DNA of 64,000 bases from Patescibacteria group bacterium (GCA_041742135.1 JBGSJG010000008.1:32518-96517), one strand, 5' to 3'; counted from the stretch's first letter, positions 2,025 through 48,874 are shown. The notes: generated from the letters alone by a model not told the origin. Translations and numbers: made by a program.

Positions 2025-5000
2025 ATGGCAAAAAAAGCACCCGATTTGGACATTATAGTACCCGTTCTAAACGAAGAAAAATCAGTCGAAAAACTGATTA
2101 TAAGAGTTCATGATGCATTAAAATCTGCTCGTATTGAGTACAGATTGATCTTTGTTGATGATCACTCCTCTGATGCTACTGTAAAAAGGATTTTAGCTTT
2201 AAAGAAAAGTTACCCAATAGTTTTACTAACGAAAAAAGGGGCGCGTGGTAAGGCTTATAGTATTTTAGAAGGGGCGAGAGTCGCAAGCGCGAAAATCGTC
2301 GCGATGCTAGATGGAGATTTACAGTATCCTCCCGAGGCAATCCCCGAGATGTTTTCTCTTACAAAACAGCATGGGGTCGTAGTGGCAAACCGCAAAAAAA
2401 GAAGTACTTCAGCTTTAAGAAAGTTTGTTTCTAAGTTTGCTGCATTCGCGGTTGCAAAAGTGTTATTAGGCTTTAACTGTGATGCTCAGTCCGGTCTTAA
2501 GGTGTTTAAGCGAAAAGTAATCGAGAGTATTACTGAAGAAGACGTCAAGCCATGGGCTCTTGATATGCCACTTCTGCACTCAGCGCTTCAGATGGGTGAA
2601 AGCATCGGCACTGTGGATATTAACTTTAGCGCGCGAAAAAGTGGGCGATCTAAGGTTAATTTGTGGAAGACATCACTAGAAATTATTTTAGTAGCCTTGA
2701 AACTTCGTTTTGGTACATCAAAAGTTGCACACATATCTCCCGTGCGAGGGCACAAATATAAAGGTGCCGGCGTGATTCATAAATCGAAGACATATATTAC
2801 TCACACAAGGTTGCCTCACAGAAAATCTGCACTTTACACACTCGTGGCTTGGCAAAAGTGGTTTATACTCAGCGTATTCGCATTAGTGGGTATCGGACTT
2901 CTTTTGGATAGCTTGACCACGCTAGTGATTTTAATTGCTGGGCTGTCCTTAATATATTTTTCTGACGTGATTTTTAGCTCTTTTGTGCTACTCAAAAGCC
3001 TTCATTTCCCACCTGAGCTCAAATTTACCGACGAAGAATTAGGTGCAATCGACGAGAAGAAATTGCCTCTTTATACAGTTCTTTGCCCACTTTACAAAGA
3101 AAGCTCGGTTCTGCCGAAATTCGTCGAATCTGTTTCAAACCTGGACTGGCCCAAAAACAAGCTTGAAGTATTAATTCTCTTAGAAGAGGATGACGCAGAG
3201 ACACTCGAAGTGGCTAAAAGCCTTAAATTGGCAAAGTACTTTAAGGTAATAGTTGTTCCTGATTCCCAACCTAGAACAAAGCCTAAGGCTTGTAATTTCG
3301 GATTAAGCGAAGCGCGAGGAGAATTTACTGTTGTATACGATGCAGAAGACCGACCTGAGCCCAGCCAACTTAAAAAAGCGTACTTGGGGTTTCTTAAAAG
3401 TAGTAACAACGTAATATGCCTGCAATCTAAGCTCAATTATTATAATCCTGAAGGAAATTTGCTCACCAGGCTATTTACTGCAGAGTATTCGCTTTGGTTT
3501 GACGTTGTATTGCCAGGTCTTCAGTCGATCGACTCAAGTATCCCACTGGGGGGCACGAGCAATCATTTTAGAACTCAAGCACTAGCTGATCTTCACGGAT
3601 GGGACCCATTCAATGTGACAGAAGATTGTGATTTGGGAGTGAGAATTTTTAAGTCAGGTTTCAAAACTGCGATTATTGACTCCATAACTCTCGAAGAAGC
3701 TAATAGCTCAGTCAAAAATTGGATAAGACAGAGATCGAGGTGGATCAAGGGTTACATTCAAACTTACTTAGTCCACATGCGTGACCCCATTGCTTTTTTC
3801 AAGGCTCACGGCATCCATGCGCTAATTTTTCAGCTCATCATCGGGATGCGCATAAGCTTTTTGTTTATTAATCCGTTCTTGTGGTTAATGACGTTTTTAT
3901 ATTTCGCGTTTCGAAGTACTGTTGGCCCAACTATTGAAGCTCTTTACCCACCTGTAATTTTCTATATCGCCTCGTTTTCATTGGTCGTGGGTAACTTTAT
4001 GTACATCTATAACTATATGATTGGTTGCGCCAAAAGAGGCCAGTATGGGTTGATTAAGTATGTACTATTCATTCCTCTGTATTGGTTATTGGCTAGTCGC
4101 GCTGCTCTTAAGGCGATTCATCAACTTGTAGTTAAGCCTCATTTTTGGGAAAAAACTCACCACGGTCTTGATCAGGCAAAGATTGCTGTGCCAACGTTTG
4201 CGTTTCCAAAGGTTTCGGTCGTGGCATCAGGCTTAAGTCTAGTACTGGCCGCGTCTGTGGCAAACCTCTTAAATTTCATTACAAGTGCTTATCTTGGCCG
4301 CGTGCTCACTCCGGACGAATTTGGGCTAGTAGCGCTTATGAGCAGCCTCTTGTTTATTGTTCAGCTTGGCTACGGCGGGATTTTCCAAACCATGTCCCAC
4401 CAAACGGCCTATCTTTCAGGAAAGCACAAAAAACTGATCGGCAACCTCTGGACTAAAGTTCGCCCCAAAGTATTTTTTGCTTCAATCGTCTTCTTTTTGC
4501 TGTGGTTAATGCTAATTCCAGTCATGCCTAACTTCTTTAACTCAGCAACATTCGTACCATTTATTGTCTTCTCGCCAATATGGGTTGTGTTGTTTTTGAA
4601 CTCAGTCGACTCTGGGTTTATTCAAGGGAGTGGGAAATACCATTACCTTGCGGTTATATTTTCGCTCGAAGCATTTTCCAAGCTAGCATTGTCATTTTTA
4701 CTTGTTAACTCAGATCTTCGGGAATGGGTTTATGCTGCCTTGCCGCTTTCGACGTTTGTTAATTTAGCAATCGGCTGGAAGCTGGCCGGGCGTGTCTCGA
4801 AAAACAACCAACTTACAAAACCTCAGGAAGTTAAAACATCCAAAGATCTTACGCTTTCGAGGAAATTTTTAGCTAATTCGCTATTGTCTCAATTTGCCGT
4901 GATTTCTTTTCTTAGTTTGGATCTTTTGTTTGTGAAACATTTTATGTCTGCTCGGGATGCGGGTGTTTACGCATTATTGGCTCTTTCTGGCCGGATGGTT

Positions 5001-6668
5001 TATTTGGCAAGTAGTTTACTGGCACAATTTATACTGCCGATAATTAGCCGCCAGAGTGGTGAGGGCGAATTGCACAAGAACGCATTCAAGTGGTCAATGT
5101 TAGCTGTTGCCGCGCCTGCCTTGTTTGTGTTTTTAATTGTAGGACCGCTTGGTGCATTTACTTTGCCTCTGATGTTTGGGGAGCGTGCGCGAGAGATAAC
5201 TAGCCTCTCAACTACCTTCGCATTTTCAATGGTACTTTTTTCTTTGGCCGCCGGGATAGTTACATTTCACCAAGCTCGCAGACAATACGTTTTTGTGTTG
5301 GCAGGGGTAATCACTGCGGCAACTCAGGCCACACTTTTGCTGTTTTTCCATAGCAACTTGGGGCAAGTAGTTAATTCCATGTTGGCAAGTTCGATAACGT
5401 TTGTATTGCTGTCATCAATTTTTCACTTAAATTCCACAAGGATGGTAATTTTAGGTTCAAATTTTCGAGACATGTGGGATTTGCTTTGGATGAAATTTAA
5501 CGGAAAAACGCCGATTGAAGGCAAGCTTAGAATCTTAATATTAAACTGGCGAGACACAAAGCATGTATGGGCCGGAGGTGCGGAAGTTTATGTTCACGAG
5601 CTTGCCCGAAGATGGGTCAAAGAGGGACATAAAGTTACACTATTTTGTGGAAACGACGGCAAGAGCAAGCGTAATGAAGAAGTCGGTGGAGTGAGAGTTG
5701 TACGCCGGGGAGGATTTTACACAGTTTATCTTTGGGCTTTTTTCTATTATATATTTCGTTTCCGTGGCAGATATGATGTTGTTGTCGATAGCGAAAACGG
5801 TGTGCCGTTTTTTACACCACTTTACTCAAGAGTTCCAAAGATCCTTATCATCTATCATGTACACCAAGATATTTTTCAAAAACACCTGTCTTTTCCACTT
5901 TCAGTTGTGGCGCGATTTCTTGAAGGAAAATTTGTGCCTCTAGTTTATAAAAATGTTCAAATTGTTACCATTTCAAATTCATCCAAAAAAGGCTTGGTAA
6001 AGTTGGGAGTAGGAAATAGTAAAGAGATGTATGTGGTTAATCCCGGAGTTGATTTGAAACTCTTAAAGCCAGGACCCAAAGCGGCCAGCCCTACAATTTC
6101 CTATCTGGGTCGGCTTAAACCATATAAGTCGGTTGATACATTAATTAAAGCCGCGGCACTTCTTGTTAAGGATTTGCCTAGTTTGAAAGTAAAAATTGCT
6201 GGATTTGGAGAAAGTAGATTATCTTTGGAAAAATTGGTTGCAAAGCTTGGGTTGTCTAGTAACATTGAGTTTTTGGGTAAAATTTCTGAAAATCAGAAAG
6301 CGAAACTTTTAGCTCAGTCTTGGGTTTTTGTGCAACCATCTACCATGGAAGGTTGGGGAATTTCGGTGATTGAAGCAAACGCTTGTGGAACTCCCGTCGT
6401 GGCTTCCCGCGTACCCGGGCTTCTTGACTCGGTTAAAAATCCATCTACTGGGTACGTAGTTCAAGCAGGCAACGAGAAGGCTTTTGCCGAGAAAATTAAA
6501 AAAATTCTGACTGACGAGCAACTGAGAAATGAATTTTCGAAAAATTCAATAGAGTGGGCTCAAAGTTTTGACTGGAACGAGAAAGCTTCAGAATTTATGT
6601 TAGTGATTAATAAAACTGTCGCTCGCGCTAACGGCTCAGAATCATACAGTATCGCTGAAACTAATTAA
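2025..6668 (+). CDS. 1547-aa four-module glycan synthase fusion: GT2 (DPM1/GtrB-like) – GT2 with QxxRW – Wzx/MOP-like flippase – GT4
   Basis: Module 1 (nt ~2025-2714): IVPVLNEEKS...LIFVDDHSSD...MLDGDLQYPP. TM segments follow. Module 2 (nt ~3042-3824): DxD-like EEDDAE, DAEDRPE, TEDCDLG and QRSRW (at ~3727). Module 3 (nt ~4216-5450): 10-12 predicted TM helices. Module 4 (nt ~5527-6668): GT4 core with EGWGISVIEANACGTPVVASRVPG. Confidence 0.75.
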   Translation: MAKKAPDLDIIVPVLNEEKSVEKLIIRVHDALKSARIEYRLIFVDDHSSDATVKRILALKKSYPIVLLTKKGARGKAYSILEGARVASAKIVAMLDGDLQYPPEAIPEMFSLTKQHGVVVANRKKRSTSALRKFVSKFAAFAVAKVLLGFNCDAQSGLKVFKRKVIESITEEDVKPWALDMPLLHSALQMGESIGTVDINFSARKSGRSKVNLWKTSLEIILVALKLRFGTSKVAHISPVRGHKYKGAGVIHKSKTYITHTRLPHRKSALYTLVAWQKWFILSVFALVGIGLLLDSLTTLVILIAGLSLIYFSDVIFSSFVLLKSLHFPPELKFTDEELGAIDEKKLPLYTVLCPLYKESSVLPKFVESVSNLDWPKNKLEVLILLEEDDAETLEVAKSLKLAKYFKVIVVPDSQPRTKPKACNFGLSEARGEFTVVYDAEDRPEPSQLKKAYLGFLKSSNNVICLQSKLNYYNPEGNLLTRLFTAEYSLWFDVVLPGLQSIDSSIPLGGTSNHFRTQALADLHGWDPFNVTEDCDLGVRIFKSGFKTAIIDSITLEEANSSVKNWIRQRSRWIKGYIQTYLVHMRDPIAFFKAHGIHALIFQLIIGMRISFLFINPFLWLMTFLYFAFRSTVGPTIEALYPPVIFYIASFSLVVGNFMYIYNYMIGCAKRGQYGLIKYVLFIPLYWLLASRAALKAIHQLVVKPHFWEKTHHGLDQAKIAVPTFAFPKVSVVASGLSLVLAASVANLLNFITSAYLGRVLTPDEFGLVALMSSLLFIVQLGYGGIFQTMSHQTAYLSGKHKKLIGNLWTKVRPKVFFASIVFFLLWLMLIPVMPNFFNSATFVPFIVFSPIWVVLFLNSVDSGFIQGSGKYHYLAVIFSLEAFSKLALSFLLVNSDLREWVYAALPLSTFVNLAIGWKLAGRVSKNNQLTKPQEVKTSKDLTLSRKFLANSLLSQFAVISFLSLDLLFVKHFMSARDAGVYALLALSGRMVYLASSLLAQFILPIISRQSGEGELHKNAFKWSMLAVAAPALFVFLIVGPLGAFTLPLMFGERAREITSLSTTFAFSMVLFSLAAGIVTFHQARRQYVFVLAGVITAATQATLLLFFHSNLGQVVNSMLASSITFVLLSSIFHLNSTRMVILGSNFRDMWDLLWMKFNGKTPIEGKLRILILNWRDTKHVWAGGAEVYVHELARRWVKEGHKVTLFCGNDGKSKRNEEVGGVRVVRRGGFYTVYLWAFFYYIFRFRGRYDVVVDSENGVPFFTPLYSRVPKILIIYHVHQDIFQKHLSFPLSVVARFLEGKFVPLVYKNVQIVTISNSSKKGLVKLGVGNSKEMYVVNPGVDLKLLKPGPKAASPTISYLGRLKPYKSVDTLIKAAALLVKDLPSLKVKIAGFGESRLSLEKLVAKLGLSSNIEFLGKISENQKAKLLAQSWVFVQPSTMEGWGISVIEANACGTPVVASRVPGLLDSVKNPSTGYVVQAGNEKAFAEKIKKILTDEQLRNEFSKNSIEWAQSFDWNEKASEFMLVINKTVARANGSESYSIAETN

Positions 6669-9008: not shown

Positions 9009-9898
9009 AAAATAAGCCATCGTTAACTGTCGCAATTCCAGCATACAACGAGGAAAAAAATATCGTGCGTTTACTTAGCGCTTTAGTGAATCAAACTGCT
9101 AAAAATTACAAATTAGACAGCATTTCTGTTTACTCGGATGGTAGTAGTGACAATACGGTTGCTTTAGTCAAAACGAACTTCCCAAACGTATTTGTATATA
9201 ATTTTCGCAAGAACTTGGGAAAAAATAGGCGTGTCAACCAAATGATGAAAAACAATAAAAGCGACATTCTGGTCCAGGTGGATGCTGATATCGAAATTTT
9301 AGACAACCGCGTTCTTGATCGTTTGGTTTGTGCGTTTGATGATAATCCAAGGATTGGTTTGGTTTGCGCGTACCATAAAGCTTTGGAACCACGAACACTA
9401 TTTGGCCGGCTTTCGTACTTTGGGTTTTTGGTATGGGACGAGGCACGAAGTAGGCTTGGGGAAAAAGGCATTCGCTATTATTGCGAGGGCGGCATGCGAG
9501 CATTTTCGCGAAGCTTTACAAAAGTGTTTCGTCTTCCTTTGGATCGCCATGTTGGTGAAGATAGTTACAGTTTCTATTTCGCTGTTGCCAACGGATTTGT
9601 GGTAGTTGCTGCTGAAAAAGCAGTTGTTTATATAAAACTTGCCGACAATGTACACGACTACGTACACCAGATGAAGCGGTTTTTAAAAGACCCGCAAATG
9701 GTTCGGGAGACTTTTGACAAGAATCTTGAAGCCAAGTACGAGATTATGTCTTCCGGTATAAAATTCAAAGCTCTGCTAAATCAATTAGCGAAAGATCCGA
9801 TTTCGGGAGTAGGATATTTCATTTTGCAATCTGCTACAAAATTAATGGCAATCAACTATAGTCCCGAAAAGAAATGGCAACCAATTGAAAGAAAATAA
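8993..9898 (+). CDS. GT2 family glycosyltransferase
   Basis: LTVAIPAYNEEKNIVRLLSAL...YSDGSSDNT...VQVDADIEIL; typical GT-A N-terminus with DxD. Confidence 0.7.
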   Translation: MEQNMKNKPSLTVAIPAYNEEKNIVRLLSALVNQTAKNYKLDSISVYSDGSSDNTVALVKTNFPNVFVYNFRKNLGKNRRVNQMMKNNKSDILVQVDADIEILDNRVLDRLVCAFDDNPRIGLVCAYHKALEPRTLFGRLSYFGFLVWDEARSRLGEKGIRYYCEGGMRAFSRSFTKVFRLPLDRHVGEDSYSFYFAVANGFVVVAAEKAVVYIKLADNVHDYVHQMKRFLKDPQMVRETFDKNLEAKYEIMSSGIKFKALLNQLAKDPISGVGYFILQSATKLMAINYSPEKKWQPIERK

Positions 9899-12525: not shown

Positions 12526-14009
12526 TGTTAAAAATTTTTGAAAAATACGCCTTCGCAATTTTTGTAGTTGTAGCAGTGATGCTTTATGGGTTGACCATTC
12601 GCGGCGCTGTCGGCGTACCAGATGAGCGTGATGTGACGTATGGGCAAATAGACTCTGGCGAGCCGTTCGAGACTTCTCAGGAAAGATCTAGATATGCGAT
12701 TATTTTAGCTCTTTACCACCATGGAGCATTTAATGTTGATGCATTTCCTCAAATGGGAACTCCGGACGTTGGTTTTATAAACGGACATTACTTTTCGTTT
12801 TTTCCGCCCACCGTTTCTATTTTTGCCTTGCCGCTTTATCACATAGGTCTAAAAATTGGGGCCACTCAGTTGATGGTGTTTCTTATTTCAACAGTTTTTG
12901 CTTTAGCTACAGGTGTATTGATCTATAAATACGCCCAGAAATTAGGCCTATCAAATATAAAGTCTGTTTTAATTGCTTACTCCTTTCTGTTTGCTACAAA
13001 TGCATGGGGATATTCGGTGACACTTTATGCACATTTGATTTCAGCGTTTTTCGTTTTAGCTGGTGTTTATGTCTTGCAATTTTCAAAAGAAGGGGCGTTG
13101 AAGGGTGCATTAATTTGGTTGTTTTACGCCTTCGCTGTTTTTGTTGATTTTCCTAACATTTTTATTTATTTCCCTATCGCATTGATTTATAGCTTGAGGG
13201 GGATATCTATTCGGGAAGCAAACAATAAGCTTAAAATTCGTATCAGCTTTATTCAAATTTTAACACCGCTAATTTTCTTTGCCGGCGTAGTTTTGTATGG
13301 ATACTATAATTATACTCAGTTCGGAAGCCCTACAATTTTAAGCAATAACCTGCCTCGCGTGCGAAATCTCAATATAATAGCCGAAGCAGCTCCGGAGCTT
13401 GGGCGTAATGTGACAGGGGCGTTAAACACCAGAATGTTGTTGAATGGCTATTACACTTTTATCGCAAGCATAGATCGAGGAGCGTTGTTTTATACGCCGA
13501 TAGTACTATTATGTTTGTTCGGATTTATCAAACTCAGAAAAAAGTACTCTGAACATATTCAGGTTATGAGTGCAGTGCCGCTTGTGTGCCTAACTTTGTA
13601 TTCAATGTTTTCAGACCCATATGGCGGTTGGGCATTCGGCTCACGCTACATGATCGTAGCTTACCCATATCTATTGCTTTTGGGTGGCGCTTGGTTTGCT
13701 AATTCTAAAAGCATACTAACAAAAATTATCTTTTCTATTGTGTTTATTTATAGCGTAGGGGTTTCTCTTTTGGCGCCTTTAACTACAAACGTTATTCCAC
13801 CACAAGTTGAAGCAAATAGTTTAGGGCTTTCTTATACTTATGCAGTTAACATGAGAATGCTTCTTGATAATAAGTTAAATTCGTTTGTTTATAACTCATT
13901 TTTAGAAGAAAAATATTCAGCTCTAGAGTACTACGCCGCTATTTTTGCTACAGTTGCAATTTTTGGATTGTTATTGATATGGGTAAAAGGAGATAAAAAA
14001 TGGAAATAA
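12525..14009 (+). CDS. Multi-pass integral membrane protein, possible GT-C glycosyltransferase (unclassified)
   Basis: About 12 hydrophobic segments. Acidic loop motif GVPDERDVTYG after TM1. ATGA-type overlap with the upstream gene. Confidence 0.35.
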   Translation: MLKIFEKYAFAIFVVVAVMLYGLTIRGAVGVPDERDVTYGQIDSGEPFETSQERSRYAIILALYHHGAFNVDAFPQMGTPDVGFINGHYFSFFPPTVSIFALPLYHIGLKIGATQLMVFLISTVFALATGVLIYKYAQKLGLSNIKSVLIAYSFLFATNAWGYSVTLYAHLISAFFVLAGVYVLQFSKEGALKGALIWLFYAFAVFVDFPNIFIYFPIALIYSLRGISIREANNKLKIRISFIQILTPLIFFAGVVLYGYYNYTQFGSPTILSNNLPRVRNLNIIAEAAPELGRNVTGALNTRMLLNGYYTFIASIDRGALFYTPIVLLCLFGFIKLRKKYSEHIQVMSAVPLVCLTLYSMFSDPYGGWAFGSRYMIVAYPYLLLLGGAWFANSKSILTKIIFSIVFIYSVGVSLLAPLTTNVIPPQVEANSLGLSYTYAVNMRMLLDNKLNSFVYNSFLEEKYSALEYYAAIFATVAIFGLLLIWVKGDKKWK

Positions 14010-31762: not shown

Positions 31763-32478
31763 GTATTTATTTGTCTTTGGTAATTCCTGTTTTTAACGAA
31801 GAGGAAATAATCAAAAAAAATCTTGATGTGGTTACAAGGTTTTTAAAAAAGTTAGGTAAGAGCTATGAAATTATTGTTGTTGATGATGGCTCAAGCGACA
31901 GCACTGTGAAAATTGTAGAAGGCATCGAAGACAAGAACGTTAAATTGATCATGCTTCGCCAGAATCGTGGGAAAGGAGCGGCGCTTCGCGCGGGGGTTGC
32001 CAAAGCCTCAGGAAAATACATCCTATTTTCTGACGCGGACTTGTCCGTGCCTATCGAGTTTTTGGATGAGATAATTAAAAAGCTTCAGATGCACGAAGTA
32101 GCTGTGGCTTCAAGAAGGGTTCAGGGGGCCGTGATTAAAACGCATCAGCCTCCACTGCGAGAACTTATGGGCAGGGTCTTTACAAAGTTAACTCAACTTC
32201 TCATCCAAAGCGGCATCGCCGATTTTACCTGCGGTTTTAAAGGCTTTACCTATGAATCAGGCAAAAAACTATTTTCTCAAAGCCGTATTGATCGCTGGGC
32301 TTATGATGCAGAGATCATATTTTTAGCTCACAAATACGGATACAAAATTGCGCAAGTGCCTGTAGTTTGGGAGAACAGAGTTGACACAAGAGTCAAGATG
32401 GGGCGTGCTGCAGTGGAGTCTTTTTTTGATGTTTTGCGGGTACGTGTGTGGGAGCTAATGGGTAAATATGAAAGTTAA
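31759..32478 (+). CDS. Polyprenyl-phosphate sugar synthase (ArnC/DPM1/CsbB-like GT2)
   Basis: LSLVIPVFNEEEII...IIVVDDGSSDST...FSDADLSVP. Confidence 0.75.
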   Translation: MSIYLSLVIPVFNEEEIIKKNLDVVTRFLKKLGKSYEIIVVDDGSSDSTVKIVEGIEDKNVKLIMLRQNRGKGAALRAGVAKASGKYILFSDADLSVPIEFLDEIIKKLQMHEVAVASRRVQGAVIKTHQPPLRELMGRVFTKLTQLLIQSGIADFTCGFKGFTYESGKKLFSQSRIDRWAYDAEIIFLAHKYGYKIAQVPVVWENRVDTRVKMGRAAVESFFDVLRVRVWELMGKYES

Positions 32479-35748: not shown

Positions 35749-37369
35749 ATCAACTTATTTTTGGCTTTTGGTGCTTAGCCTGCCGGCGCTATGGTTTTTA
35801 GTTACTCCGGGGGGCTATGAGCCTCACGATTTTCACCATATTGCGGACATTCATCAAATGTATCGAGCAATAACATCGGGGCAAATTCCTCCAAGACTCG
35901 GCCCGGATTTTTATATGAGCTTTGGCTATCCACTATTTAATTACTACTATGTTTTGCCCTTTTATTTGGGCGCGGGATTTTTTGCCCTAACCGGGAGTTT
36001 GATGGAAGCCCTGAAGTGGGTTTTTCTGGCTTCAGGAATAGTTTCGGTACTGGGAATGTACGCCTTGCTTCGAAAATATTTCAGTAGTGCTGCTTCTGTG
36101 GCAGGTGCAGTCCTTTATCTGTACACACCTTTTCGCGCAGTTGAGATATATGTACGCGGTGCAATTGGCGAGGCTGTGGCAATTGCTCTTTTGCCCTGGG
36201 TTTTGTATGCATTTGTCGCTTTAGTTGGCAAAACCAATAAGAAAAATATCGCGCTTTTGGCCGTTGTTTTGGGTTTATTTTTTATTACTCACAACTACTT
36301 CTTTTTAATCGCTATGCCGTTTATCGGCCTTTTTACATTAATTGAGCTTCACGGGTCTGGCAAGTTTATTCAAAAAATACCCGCAGTACTTTCTGCTATC
36401 TTGCTAGGAATTTTGGCTTCTGCCTATTGGTGGTTACCTGCGTTTGTAGAACACCGTCTTGTGGCTTCGGCGACTCCATTCGCAATTCACGATCACTTTC
36501 CCTTTTTAAAACAGTTAATTTTGCCAAGTTGGGGATATGGCAGCTCAGTTTGGGGCCCGTATGATCTTATTTCTTTTCAAATTGGCATCGTGAATCTGAT
36601 AGCGGTTGCCGTTTCGATTCTTTTGTTTATCAAACTAAGAAACAACATGAATAGGCAATATAAAATCGCATTGCTTGCATTTGTCTTTTTTATGCTTTGC
36701 GTTTTTATGATGAACATCCGATCGATGCCTGTTTGGAAAATCATTCCCTTCACGAACTTCATTCAATTCCCATGGAGATTTTTAGGCTTCACCACCTTCT
36801 TCAGCTCGTTTTTGGCAGGGTTTGTAGTTGAGAATTTGCGTTGGCGTAAACTTGCGGCGCTTTTAGTTATAGCCTCTTGCATCATCTTGACTGTGGGGTA
36901 CTTTAGGCCGAGCGGGAATTTGCTTCGCACTAACGAGGAATATTTAAATCATTTTTTCAACAACACAATGTATAGTGAAGATTATTTGCAGACTCCAATT
37001 GGGGTTAGCGCAAAGCCCACAACTCCACTGGCAAAGTTTGAAGTCGAAGCTGGCGAGGTGTTGTCAATCGTGGAGGCCTCGCCTGTCAGTTGGCGAGCAG
37101 AGATCGTAGCAGAGTCTGGCTCGGTTGTTACAGCTAATGCTTTGGCCATTCCCGGATGGGTGGTTAAAGTTGATGGGAATCCGATCCAAACTCGATTTAA
37201 GGAACCCATGGGAAACATGGAGTTTTCTCTTTCCGCAGGCCTTCACACAGTTGAGCTTTCATGGGAGGAAACGGACTTGAGGCAGGTAGCAGACATCATG
37301 AGCCTAGCGGCACTACTAATTATTTGTTACCTATTTCTAGCGAGACCCCGTTCTCGTGCTACAATTTGA
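35735..37369 (+). CDS. GT-C-like membrane glycosyltransferase, 'YFPMHDD' family, divergent paralog 3
   Basis: YEPHDFHHIADIHQMYRAITSGQIPPRLGPDFYMSFGYPLFNYYYVLPFY and FRAVEIYVRGAIGEAVA. Same architecture as paralogs 1 and 2. Confidence 0.45.
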   Translation: MKLHKSTYFWLLVLSLPALWFLVTPGGYEPHDFHHIADIHQMYRAITSGQIPPRLGPDFYMSFGYPLFNYYYVLPFYLGAGFFALTGSLMEALKWVFLASGIVSVLGMYALLRKYFSSAASVAGAVLYLYTPFRAVEIYVRGAIGEAVAIALLPWVLYAFVALVGKTNKKNIALLAVVLGLFFITHNYFFLIAMPFIGLFTLIELHGSGKFIQKIPAVLSAILLGILASAYWWLPAFVEHRLVASATPFAIHDHFPFLKQLILPSWGYGSSVWGPYDLISFQIGIVNLIAVAVSILLFIKLRNNMNRQYKIALLAFVFFMLCVFMMNIRSMPVWKIIPFTNFIQFPWRFLGFTTFFSSFLAGFVVENLRWRKLAALLVIASCIILTVGYFRPSGNLLRTNEEYLNHFFNNTMYSEDYLQTPIGVSAKPTTPLAKFEVEAGEVLSIVEASPVSWRAEIVAESGSVVTANALAIPGWVVKVDGNPIQTRFKEPMGNMEFSLSAGLHTVELSWEETDLRQVADIMSLAALLIICYLFLARPRSRATI

Positions 37370-47204: not shown

Positions 47205-48874
47205 AAAAGTACAGTCTACTGATTATTATTCTTCTTTTGACGTCGTTTCTCCGGTTATATAAGCTAGACCACGTCCCTGTGAGTCTGTTTGGGGACGAAA
47301 TGGATTTGGGCTATCAAGCTTATTCTATTTTAAAAACTGGTAATGATTATTACGGAAACTTCATGCCATTTCACTTTCATTCCTTGGCAGAGTGGAGAAC
47401 GCCTCTTTATTTGTATTCAGCAGTCCCAACTGTCGCTTTGTTTGGCATTTCACCTCTGGGAGTCAGACTCCCTGCAGCAATTTTTGGAATTTTGGGCGTA
47501 GTCGCCTTTTACTTCTTGGTTAAAATTATTCGCGAATCGTTCATGAAATCGGGAAGCACCCGCATTGAGGCAGTCGGAGCTTTTCTCCTGGCCATTTCAC
47601 CTTGGCATATCCAATACAGCCGTGCAGGTTTTGAAGTAACAGAAATGCTTTTTTTCCTGATAACAGGTATTTATTTCTTCCTTCGCGGGCTCAAGGATGG
47701 AAAATACTTATGGCTTTCGGCAGTCTGCCTTACTTTGACTCCTTGGATTTATAGCACTGCAAAAATGTTCGTTCCTTTTTTAATAATTTTTCTTGTAGTA
47801 ACTTTTCGAAAGGAGCTTGTGAAGACCTCAAAAAAGCACCTTCTGTCCGCAATCGTTGCTCTTCTTGTTGTTGGTTTGCCGATTGCAGCAAGTACACTGT
47901 TTGGCGGTGGCAGCCAACGTTTTGGTTACATATCGGTATTTACAGATCCTACAATAGAACACGAGATCGGAGTAGCGCGAGATATCGACGCCTGGGGAAA
48001 CTCAATTGCTTCCCGCGCATTTCACAATAAATTTGTTGTCTGGGCAGAGGCGATAGGCAACAATATGCTCCAGAGTTATTCTACTGATTATCTTTTTATT
48101 AGAGGTGATATTAATCTTCGCCACTCCATTGAAGATATGGGAATGCTCTATAAAGTCGAGATAGTCGCGCTTTTGTTGGGCATTGTTTATTTCTTTAGAG
48201 CCAAAGCAGACAGAAGAATTAAGTACCTTCTAGCCTTTTGGTTATTGGCAGGCGTGGTGCCATCAGCAATAACTCGTGAAGGAGGAAGCCATGGGACTAG
48301 GCTAATTTTAATCTTGCCACCTCTTATACTGCTTGTGGCTTCTGGTGTAAGCTGGCTTTCGAAAAACAAGATCTACCTTTTTCTTTACACTTTTGTTTTG
48401 TGCGGACTGTTTGTAATTTATCAGCATAACTTCTGGGTTCATAATCCAAAGTATTCAGAGCGTTGGTGGCATTATGGATGGCAAGAAGCGGTGGATAGCA
48501 TCAAAGCTGTAGAAGGAAGCTATGACAAAGTTGTGATCTCTACGGCGGATGAGCCACCTTGGGTGTTTTTTGCTGGGGCTTATGAATACGACCCCAAATC
48601 TTGGCAGGAAAATTTTCCATTAGATAACAAAGCCGATCTTGAGGGCTTCGGTTCGGTTTCTTATATCGATAAGTACTATTTCGGAAGTCCCAAGGCCGGT
48701 CTTTACGATTGGGGGAAAATTATCGATTCAAAAACGCTTTATTTGGCATCAACCCGAGAGGTGGGAGTGAATTTGATTCGCGAGCCCGAGCGAACCCCCG
48801 GGGATTTGAAATTAATTGATTCCATCGCTTTCCCGTCAGGCGAGCCTGCATTTTACTTGTTTACCCACAGATGA
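47201..48874 (+). CDS. PMT/ArnT-family GT-C glycosyltransferase (COG1807-like), tandem paralog 1
   Basis: LRLYKLDHVPVSLFGDEMDLGYQAYSILKTGNDYYGNFMPFHF...LFGISPLGVRLPAAIFGILGVVAFYFL. About 11 TM helices and a ~200-aa soluble C-terminal domain. Confidence 0.65.
   Translation: MKKYSLLIIILLLTSFLRLYKLDHVPVSLFGDEMDLGYQAYSILKTGNDYYGNFMPFHFHSLAEWRTPLYLYSAVPTVALFGISPLGVRLPAAIFGILGVVAFYFLVKIIRESFMKSGSTRIEAVGAFLLAISPWHIQYSRAGFEVTEMLFFLITGIYFFLRGLKDGKYLWLSAVCLTLTPWIYSTAKMFVPFLIIFLVVTFRKELVKTSKKHLLSAIVALLVVGLPIAASTLFGGGSQRFGYISVFTDPTIEHEIGVARDIDAWGNSIASRAFHNKFVVWAEAIGNNMLQSYSTDYLFIRGDINLRHSIEDMGMLYKVEIVALLLGIVYFFRAKADRRIKYLLAFWLLAGVVPSAITREGGSHGTRLILILPPLILLVASGVSWLSKNKIYLFLYTFVLCGLFVIYQHNFWVHNPKYSERWWHYGWQEAVDSIKAVEGSYDKVVISTADEPPWVFFAGAYEYDPKSWQENFPLDNKADLEGFGSVSYIDKYYFGSPKAGLYDWGKIIDSKTLYLASTREVGVNLIREPERTPGDLKLIDSIAFPSGEPAFYLFTHR

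Follow-up and report, generated by a model that had tools for sequence, protein, structure and literature searches.

Polysaccharide export is taught as a set of alternatives: the synthase-, Wzx/Wzy-, and ABC-dependent pathways. Can a single bacterial polypeptide unite signature parts of two of them, and would it then be a complete machine? The question is raised by a gene at positions 2025 through 6668 (+ strand) of a 64,000-nucleotide stretch of DNA from a Patescibacteria group bacterium (GCA_041742135.1 JBGSJG010000008.1:32518-96517). This whole stretch is herein called the window; coordinates refer to its numbering, and residue numbers refer to the 1547-residue product of the gene. A preliminary description had read the gene as a fusion of two glycosyltransferase family 2 (GT2) domains, a Wzx-like flippase, and a glycosyltransferase family 4 (GT4) domain, forming a complete synthase-export module in one protein. 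We find that the fusion is real and that every module comes from a known family; what is unusual is that one chain unites the polymerase of a synthase pathway with a flippase of the Wzx type, a lipid-sugar synthase, and a GT4. Functional statements that go beyond family membership are our inferences.

A four-module protein encoded in one frame

The sequence from 2025 through 6668 (+) is one ATG-started open reading frame (ORF) for a four-module membrane glycosyltransferase; its stop codon lies at 6666 through 6668, there are no internal stops, and it reads without interruption, as first described. At ~40% GC, ~6% of random codons are stops (by arithmetic, ~1 per 16 codons), so a frame of 1547 open codons lies far beyond chance. 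The peptides quoted in the preliminary description (IVPVLNEEKS, FVDDHSSD, LDGDLQY, DAED, TEDCD, QRSRW, and EGWGISVIEANACGTPVV) are all present in the translation. A Pfam domain scan, one of the checks it had proposed, recovers all four modules in this one frame and in the order first given: two GT2 cores, a Wzx-like member of the MOP superfamily, and a GT4. Another, a search for orthologous fusions, returned more than 120 full-length homologues.

Could such a frame arise from separate genes that have been run together through an overlooked stop, a frameshift, or contig chimerism? An identical protein (P0001) lies on a 297-kb contig in NCBI. Distinct full-length homologues or clusters, found independently in assemblies from NCBI, JGI, ENA, and Logan, number more than 120; they align over their whole length, and not one has a module junction out of frame. 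The best 120 database clusters range from 1513 to 1621 residues, with query coverage of 98 to 100% and identity of 46 to 70%. Speaking for an artifact, frameshifts (real or due to sequencing error) do occur in the family: in a pair of loci from a Daviesbacteria and a Gottesmanbacteria metagenome-assembled genome (MAG; L010:9959-14648 and L011:376-5065), the gene is split directly past the transmembrane (TM) hairpin into two overlapping frames, which is either a real split or an assembly frameshift error. Set against the number of intact relatives, an artifactual origin is exceedingly improbable and effectively refuted; the four-module ORF is a genuine single protein. Source names of the full-length homologues include Woese-, Gottesman-, Roizman-, Curtiss-, Ames-, and Dojkabacteria and “Microgenomates,” and it is from these labels that the protein is assigned to Microgenomates. 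In the databases the fusion is labeled “glycosyltransferase,” “XagB,” or “hypothetical protein.”

Module 1 (2025 through 2729, +; residues 1 through 235) is a DPM1/GtrB/ArnC-like GT2. It matches Pfam Glycos_transf_2 (PF00535) over residues 10 through 166 (E = 2e-35), and a profile built from 50 homologues matches the structures of DPMS (Protein Data Bank [PDB]: 5mlz; E = 1.3e-32), ArnC (9hwj; 1e-27), and GtrB (5ekp; 2.8e-23). Residues D46, D50, and D96-x-D98 are invariant across 50 homologues, the sample on which all residue invariance was scored. The module thus combines a DxD-bearing GT-A domain with a profile that resembles polyprenyl-phosphate GT2s of known structure. Whereas GtrB is anchored by two TM helices of its own and DPMS/GtrA-type enzymes by four, it contains no TM helix and closes in an amphipathic helix (205 through 235); the hairpin that follows is that of the synthase core. 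This hairpin lies within residues 236 through 340 (2730 through 3044, +), for which an AlphaFold2 (AF2) model (m8c13969ef951) has a conserved β-hairpin (249 through 258) and then TM1 and TM2 (275 through 327); the “TM block” noted after the first GT2 is this two-helix hairpin. We assign the segment to the synthase core, as relatives without module 1 have it too: in them, a hidden Markov model (HMM) of it, termed “link,” matches upstream of the synthase.

Module 2 (3045 through 4169, +; residues 341 through 715) is a BcsA/hyaluronan-synthase-like GT2. Pfam places Glyco_tranf_2_3 (PF13641) at residues 350 through 576 (E = 5.5e-31) and Glyco_trans_2_3 (PF13632) at 436 through 633. A GT-A domain (350 through 557) is followed by an interface helix that carries QRSRW (563 through 584), by TM3 (597 through 628) and TM4 (643 through 670), and by an amphipathic helix (674 through 703) with a near-invariant tail, KPHFWEKTHHG. 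D439-A-E-D442, T532-E-D534, and Q569RSRW573 are invariant, and the module holds the D, DxD, TED, and Q(R/Q)xRW motifs of processive membrane GT2 synthases. QxxRW had been cited as the processive signature; that motif alone is not diagnostic, and better evidence comes from the fold match to BcsA and hyaluronan synthase (HAS) and from the genomic context of orthologues, with MshEN domains and BcsB-like neighbors.

AF2 models were made for modules 2 and 3 and submitted to Foldseek. The module 2 model, which shows the elements from the β-hairpin to the tail (predicted local distance difference test [pLDDT] 89.5), places the glycosyltransferase domain on interface helices and a TM bundle, the predicted channel architecture. 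BcsA is the first match (E = 4e-17), followed by XlHAS1 from Xenopus and CvHAS from a Chlorella virus; the three align over almost the entire model, ~450 to 500 columns, with E-values of 1e-14 to 4e-17 and a query TM-score (TMq) of 0.55 to 0.59. Further matches are the minimal cellulose-synthase-like PcManGT and chitin synthase. The model thus predicts for module 2 the fold of the membrane-embedded processive synthases BcsA and HAS. Conservation of TM3 and TM4 (0.75) is close to that of the catalytic core (0.79), and among the modules the synthase is the most conserved (69% identity), ahead of the GT4 (53%), the first GT2 (50%), and the MOP module (33%).

Compared with BcsA (with or without BcsB) and the class I HAS, and also PgaC and chitin synthase, module 2 is alike in its D/DxD/TED/QxxRW core, the QRSRW interface helix, and the flanking TM helices. 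It differs from BcsA and HAS in having only four TM helices (2+2) plus amphipathic helices and in being covalently flanked by another GT2 and by MOP-GT4, and from BcsA in that Pfam finds no PilZ domain in the fusion ORF.

Module 3 (4170 through 5519, +; residues 716 through 1165) is a 12-TM protein of the MOP superfamily (PST/Wzx type) with its N and C termini inside. It passes the Pfam threshold for Polysacc_synt (PF01943; residues 733 through 1009) modestly, with 34 to 37.6 bits against a cut-off of 28.2; within the MOP family just 12 of 35 members match Polysacc_synt at E ≤ 0.01, and 4 of the 35 match MatE instead. An NCBIfam search of the module gave zero matches and the family profile hit only spurious G protein-coupled receptors in the PDB; we therefore turned to a fold search. 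The AF2 model (pLDDT 90.9; predicted TM-score [pTM] 0.88) superposes over its full length on MATE, MurJ, and WzxE, the flippase of lipid III (TM-scores, 0.6 to 0.72). Its 12 TM helices form two six-helix bundles with a clear positive-inside pattern and both ends in the cytoplasm; R759, D966, and K971 are conserved. In family membership, fold, and helix number, it bears out the 10- to 12-TM MOP/Wzx-like domain first described. Its fusion partners suggest that it may flip a polyprenyl-(di)phosphate-linked saccharide.

Module 4 (5520 through 6668, +; residues 1166 through 1547) is a cytoplasmic GT4 of the retaining-type GT-B class. Its two Rossmann-like halves match Glyco_transf_4 (PF13439; residues 1184 through 1345, E = 5.5e-17) and Glycos_transf_1 (PF00534; residues 1354 through 1511, E = 7.8e-46), and E1442 and E1450 of the E-x7-E motif are invariant, in agreement with the original assignment. 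The PDB relatives are MshA, TarM, and PimA; no equivalog threshold is reached. The same is true of all four modules with respect to NCBIfam equivalog cut-offs. Module 1 scores 76 against a cut-off of 500 for PgfS and 73 against 529 for ArnC; for module 2 the scores are 70 against 699 for CelA and 55 to 96 against 422 for PgaC. With scores so far under the cut-offs, CelA, PgaC/IcaA, NfrB, PgfS, ArnC, and MshA were ruled out as identities, and we assign no named enzyme or orthology to any module. Each of the four retains its catalytic or family-defining residues across the 50 homologues.

The assembled topology comprises ~16 TM helices (2+2+12) and three cytoplasmic catalytic domains, an arrangement that fits because these three domains need cytoplasmic nucleotide sugars. 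In variants that lack the MOP (L036 and others), the GT4 is joined straight onto the synthase tail, so this tail must be cytoplasmic; insertion of a 12-TM MOP keeps the topological parity and is consistent with a cytoplasmic GT4.

A promoter had also been noted just upstream. The TTGCAA-17-TACAAT site is there (1947 through 1975, +; 9 of 12 matches), within the 86-nt gap upstream of the ORF, the sole intergenic gap. Its frequency is at chance level, however: the first 8 kb hold 13 promoter-like sites, against 15.2 ± 3.8 expected from shuffled sequence. As this count is not above expectation, the site carries no statistical weight and is a candidate only.

The synthase core and its partners in other genomes

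A scan of species-representative genomes gave 597 loci matching synthase patterns, and the best 80 were kept: 50 from the candidate phyla radiation (CPR) and 30 from outside it. Each was viewed over ±10 kb around the homologue, with stop-to-stop ORFs as gene calls. Several of the MAGs are labeled Gammaproteobacteria or Bdellovibrionales, and their gene content leads us to treat these labels with caution. HMMs built from the homologue alignment for each module (GT2a for the first GT2, link, SYN for the synthase, MOP, and GT4) were run on the 80 loci. Besides the full fusion, GT2a-SYN-MOP-GT4, the modules occur as SYN-MOP-GT4 without the first GT2 (e.g., Amesbacteria), as GT2a-SYN-GT4 without the MOP (e.g., Gottesmanbacteria GWA2_43_14), as GT2a-SYN followed by a separate adjacent MOP-GT4 gene (L032, L035, L039, and L043), as SYN followed by MOP, and as GT2a-SYN alone. 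Two loci (L026 and L031) encode GT2a-SYN-GT4 with a 200-residue MOP remnant ahead of the GT4 and a full-length MOP gene directly after. The expectation that these functions normally reside in separate genes is borne out by such split versions in related genomes, and because the same modules are found split there, the protein is a Rosetta-stone fusion, the pathway that it joins being a conserved one. On the distribution of its variants, it is best seen as two two-module units, GT2-SYN and MOP-GT4, that have been joined; what stays constant is the synthase. These naturally occurring splits, deletions, and re-fusions chart the parts that function jointly.

With the MOP module as query, an exhaustive HMMER search yielded 111 representatives at E ≤ 1e-30. 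Of the top 150 matches, 85 have the MOP as the sole module matched (many stand-alone, some with other C-terminal domains); 36 are MOP-GT4, 11 SYN-MOP-GT4, 8 full fusions, and 4 MOP-GT2. Other fusion partners of the family are GT2-GT4, GT4-GNAT, an APH/kinase-like domain, and GtrB-like GT2 domains. Four relatives (P0143, P0137, P0165, and P0171) are fused to APH/protein-kinase-like domains, one of them also to GrpB; these fusions recall MviN, the mycobacterial MurJ-pseudokinase fusion.

Outside CPR, the synthase core is 46 to 51% identical in Chloroflexi, Actinobacteria, and spore-forming Firmicutes. There, 18 of the 30 loci (e.g., L053, L065, L067, and L077) encode synthases with one to six MshEN domains, which bind cyclic di-GMP (c-di-GMP), N-terminal to the TM hairpin (NCBIfam c-di-GMP_motif, 172 bits; Pfam MshEN, up to 296 bits), and a BcsB-family neighbor is found in 7 of the 30; the corresponding count in CPR is 0 of 50 loci for MshEN and likewise for BcsB-like neighbors. 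The operon of Clostridium drakei comprises a ManC-like gene, a GT-C, a GT2 with a GtrA-type TM domain, MshEN-SYN, and a BcsB-family protein; that of Desulforamulus aeronauticus comprises two GT-C-like genes, MshEN-SYN, a BcsB-family protein, GT2 with GtrA, ManC, and PMM. A GT2a-like gene adjoins the synthase in seven sampled Firmicutes loci, and in five of the seven its best match among all proteins of the window is module 1; the two such genes that were scanned (L065 and L077) have a GtrA-type TM domain and GDP-mannose genes nearby. To judge from gene content, these contexts look like those of c-di-GMP-gated, synthase-dependent exopolysaccharide systems with an added lipid-sugar branch. The MshEN and BcsB-like context of its orthologues lends indirect support to the view that module 2 may polymerize processively and translocate its product.

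Three known systems were considered as counterparts of the synthase. Escherichia coli NfrB combines a GT2 and an MshEN domain (PMC8669469), and MshEN-glycosyltransferase fusions have been noted before (PMC5013675). The non-CPR orthologues of module 2 share the MshEN domain with NfrB, but carry it N-terminally rather than C-terminally, and the fusion ORF has none, with module 1 in that position. Orthology to NfrB was ruled out: NfrB-family models match mainly the MshEN part and give the synthase just 24 to 34 bits. The clostridial CcsA/CcsB system was ruled out as the Firmicutes counterpart, as CcsA is of the PilZ type and CcsB is not BcsB-like (PMC7710045). Identity with the Bcs cellulose synthase was excluded by the missing PilZ domain, the CelA score given above, and the lack of BcsB and MshEN in all 50 CPR loci.

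The most faithful partner of the synthase family is a separate gene, at 14000 through 15604 (+) in the window, whose 534-residue multi-TM product is annotated “hypothetical.” The protein has no Pfam, NCBIfam, or PDB sequence match and is 63 to 77% identical across Microgenomates. Its placement as a divergent GT-C membrane glycosyltransferase comes solely from hhalign, which aligns it to the PMT_2 paralogues of the window over 364 columns (probability 96.9%, E = 1.6e-10), with its invariant D51 on the PMT_2 D-E motif. The family HMM is specific: within the window it matches strongly at 14000 through 15604 alone and not at the dozen PMT_2 paralogues. By this measure 68 of the 80 loci (41 of 50 in CPR and 27 of 30 outside) have the partner within ±10 kb of the core, and in four Chloroflexi loci (L051, L055, L057, and L058) the two are a single protein, with the partner as its C-terminal half; the L055 version is 32% identical to the partner in pairwise alignment (E = 7e-45). 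Since the synthase core almost always lies near a separate GT-C, the fusion is not a complete machine. The description of a complete synthase-export module fails on this near-universal, separately encoded partner and other conserved neighbors, and on the variants that lack the MOP or the first GT2. The analysis exposes a near-universal pairing of the synthase with an unannotated GT-C across several phyla.

Working models for the fusion

The role in surface-glycan synthesis and translocation first suggested for the fusion is plausible, and it is probably the hub of a conserved cell-surface glycan pathway with the separate GT-C as partner. The best reading, one we regard as having an even chance of being right, is a hybrid of synthase-dependent polymerization and lipid-carrier-dependent extracellular glycosylation. 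Module 2 would polymerize a β-linked backbone from a nucleotide sugar and thread the polymer through its own TM channel, and module 1 would load polyprenyl phosphate with a monosaccharide at the cytoplasmic face. The MOP would flip a lipid-linked sugar outward, maybe the product of module 1 and possibly after extension by the GT4; in Firmicutes, the GtrA-type TM domain on the neighboring GT2 may do this job. The GT-C partner, perhaps with other GT-C paralogues of the island in which the gene lies, would then use the flipped donor to decorate or complete the emerging polymer. The GT4 would act with the MOP as a cytoplasmic accessory transferase that either extends the lipid-linked sugar or makes a lipid-linked primer or anchor. 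In CPR, module 1 occupies the N-terminal slot taken elsewhere by MshEN, and the fusion would swap second-messenger gating for fixed stoichiometry and proximity.

Parts of this scheme have counterparts. A DPM1/GtrB/ArnC-like GT2, a flippase, and a GT-C are likewise encoded together in GtrB/GtrA/GtrV, CsbB/GtcA/YfhO, ArnC/ArnEF/ArnT, and GacI/GacK/GacL. In the group A Streptococcus carbohydrate, GacI (GT2), GacK (Wzx family, the proposed flippase), and GacL (GT-C) act on a polyrhamnose backbone (bioRxiv 10.1101/180810), by analogy a direct precedent for a lipid-sugar branch on a backbone polysaccharide; PMC5836110 gives examples of three-component glycosylation systems for lipoteichoic and wall teichoic acids. 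Unlike these systems, the fusion links GT2 and flippase covalently to each other and to a synthase and a GT4, its flippase is a 12-TM MOP rather than a 4-TM GtrA, module 1 lacks a TM domain of its own, and the acceptor would presumably be the synthase-made polymer, a combination that has not been described. Module 3 resembles the flippase of the Wzx/Wzy pathway in passing the Polysacc_synt threshold and in superposing on WzxE (TM-scores of 0.67 and 0.72), but it is fused to a synthase, the hallmark of an alternative pathway. A literature search found no description of the four-module fusion in the searchable literature. Its characterization as not an established architecture thus stands as far as publications go; in the databases, with more than 120 full-length clusters, the architecture is common.

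Several observations weigh against the hybrid. Non-processive enzymes, too, can have QxxRW and a CesA-like fold, and PcManGT (PDB: 6yv7) is among the matches of module 2. Some fusions lack module 1 (Amesbacteria, L008 and L009), and the 50 CPR loci contain neither a BcsB-like protein nor a c-di-GMP domain. The MOP is the least conserved module (33%), and six loci (L015, L018, L024, L027, L036, and L042) have no MOP and no orthologous MOP nearby; being weakly conserved and missing from several natural variants, the flippase cannot be obligatorily coupled. Its commonest fused partner is the GT4 (36 of 150), not a GT2, which suggests that it may flip the product of the GT4 and not that of module 1. 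The model is at its weakest in the role it gives to the GT4.

In place of supplying a decorating sugar, module 1 might prime the synthase. Its polyprenyl-phosphate-sugar would be elongated processively by module 2 during translocation, and the GT-C would move the finished chain from lipid to wall, lipid, or protein, like the O-antigen ligase of synthase-dependent O-antigen systems, leaving MOP-GT4 as a separate lipid-linked-sugar branch. The fusion of module 1 directly ahead of the synthase TM hairpin is what such priming would predict, and GT2a-SYN and MOP-GT4 do act as two separable units. The GT-C partner, moreover, is as conserved as the synthase (63 to 77% against 69%) and is fused to it in Chloroflexi, which fits an obligatory downstream step better than variable decoration. 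Yet the solved BcsA and HAS enzymes require no lipid primer, PMT_2/ArnT-type GT-C enzymes normally transfer single sugars, and many non-CPR loci pair synthase and GT-C with no module-1-like gene within 10 kb; lipid priming is in our judgment unlikely, if worth keeping in view. More radically, module 2 might be a non-processive membrane GT2 and not a self-exporting polymerase. The three transferases would then build a single lipid-linked oligosaccharide or glycolipid at the cytoplasmic face in a Wzx-type line, the fused MOP would flip it, and GT-C enzymes would extend it outside, in the manner of glycosylphosphatidylinositol (GPI) anchors or of the mycobacterial phosphatidylinositol mannosides, lipomannan, and lipoarabinomannan (PIM/LM/LAM). 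The mannosyltransferase PcManGT, which is minimal and cellulose-synthase-like, matches module 2 well in structure, and the MOP family has fusions with many cytoplasmic lipid-sugar enzymes. The island, too, encodes a PIG-L, a CE4-GT4, a GT87, and at least 12 PMT_2-type GT-C proteins, contents that recall GPI and LAM gene sets; in common with those pathways it has a GT4 that works at the membrane, a PIG-L-family deacetylase, a step of flipping, a polyprenyl-P-mannose synthase of the DPM1 type, and numerous GT-C enzymes, a GT87 among them. The resemblance is one of gene content only, and the GPI and PIM/LM/LAM pathways are not known to contain a BcsA-like synthase. That the top fold matches are the processive BcsA and HAS, TM parts included, tells against a non-processive module 2, as do the near invariance of QRSRW and the TM helices, the orthologues with MshEN gating and in some cases BcsB-like partners typical of exopolysaccharide synthases, and the existence of MOP-less variants; we think this scheme rather improbable.

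The four enzymes might also have no joint chemistry at all, having been joined in a reduced genome for co-expression, with no hand-over of substrate. GT2a, MOP, and GT4 are each absent in some lineages, and multidomain glycosyltransferase fusions are frequent at these loci (e.g., CE4-GT4 at 9885 through 11774, or MOP-GT4-GT2 in L032), as one would expect of fusions of convenience. Split modules nevertheless stay adjacent and in the same order in many lineages, the loci in which the internal MOP is truncated (L026 and L031) have a full MOP gene directly after, and the MOP family specific to this module is almost confined to this context, so that we give a mere fusion of convenience little credence. 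The hybrid reading can also be extended, tentatively and with more doubt than conviction on our part: the fusion may be the tip of an unrecognized, phylum-spanning glycan system whose core is a BcsA/HAS-like synthase with one dedicated GT-C. This core would be c-di-GMP-gated through MshEN in Firmicutes, Actinobacteria, and Chloroflexi and joined to a lipid-sugar synthase, a MOP, and a GT4 in Microgenomates, where one chain would run the synthase and the lipid-carrier/flippase routes at once and make the main envelope polymer. The fusion would offer a compact model for the coupling of polymerization, lipid-sugar supply, and flipping; and as CPR/Patescibacteria are mostly uncultivated, one expressible gene and one partner gene give an experimental entry to their envelope chemistry.

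The surrounding glycosylation island

The whole window is a glycosylation island, with nearly all genes on the same strand. The same operon continues 2 nt past the stop codon of the fusion with a GT2 gene (6670 through 7593, +; homologues in 16 of 50 CPR loci), and a PMT_2-type GT-C membrane glycosyltransferase (7590 through 9008, +; PF13231, E = 8e-8) and another GT2 gene (8993 through 9898, +) follow; blastp homologues of the latter, which may include GT2 paralogues, occur in 32 of 50 CPR loci. Next come a CE4 polysaccharide deacetylase fused to a GT4, with no obvious signal peptide (9885 through 11774, +; 35 of 50 CPR loci, a count that may include GT4 cross-matches), and a PIG-L family de-N-acetylase (11701 through 12525, +; 14 of 50). 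By analogy with GPI, mycothiol, and bacillithiol chemistry, this succession suggests cytoplasmic de-N-acetylation of a GlcNAc-carrying intermediate. A 494-residue multi-TM protein (12525 through 14009, +; 32 of 50 CPR loci) precedes the GT-C partner; it has no Pfam match, looks GT-C-like by sequence, and gives only a marginal match to the partner's own HMM (GT-C534).

Downstream of the partner lies the gene for a 407-residue secreted protein (15619 through 16842, +; 24 of 50 CPR loci, 46% identity) that has no Pfam or PDB sequence match and is a candidate glycoside hydrolase of the kind usual in synthase-dependent operons. It is followed by a small secreted protein (16909 through 17490, +) with a Gly/Ser-rich linker, an LAQTG sorting motif, a TM helix, and an RRKRH tail, and by a sortase gene (17312 through 18007, +); both recur near the fusion in 9 to 13 of 50 CPR loci. 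The LAQTG protein may be a wall-anchored, perhaps glycosylated, surface protein.

Among ~40 window ORFs scanned with Pfam, no initiating phosphoglycosyl transferase, Wzy, or chain-length regulator/co-polymerase was recognized; Pfam gave no match for several multi-TM ORFs, and the scan took in some but not all of the paralogues. A canonical stand-alone Wzx-type flippase is encoded at 37261 through 38835 (+; Polysacc_synt_3, E = 1e-51), and as BLAST does not link it to the fused MOP, the island has at least two MOP flippases. Also encoded are several GT2s that are small and DPM1-like, one of them with a GtrA-type TM domain, as well as GT4s and sugar-nucleotide enzymes. PMT_2-type GT-C membrane glycosyltransferases have undergone a very large expansion, to at least 12 paralogous copies in the window (23479 through 25023, 27985 through 29511, 30191 through 31762, 47201 through 48874, 50145 through 58991, and others), besides a GT87-like protein at 48871 through 50148. 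Three further multi-TM paralogues of 540 to 550 residues lie at 32468 through 37369; the first, the one scanned, has no Pfam match. Finally, three tandem paralogues of ~330 residues occupy 25054 through 28052 (+); the first is DHH/DHHA1 phosphoesterase-like by Pfam, and the other two are grouped with it by blastp only.

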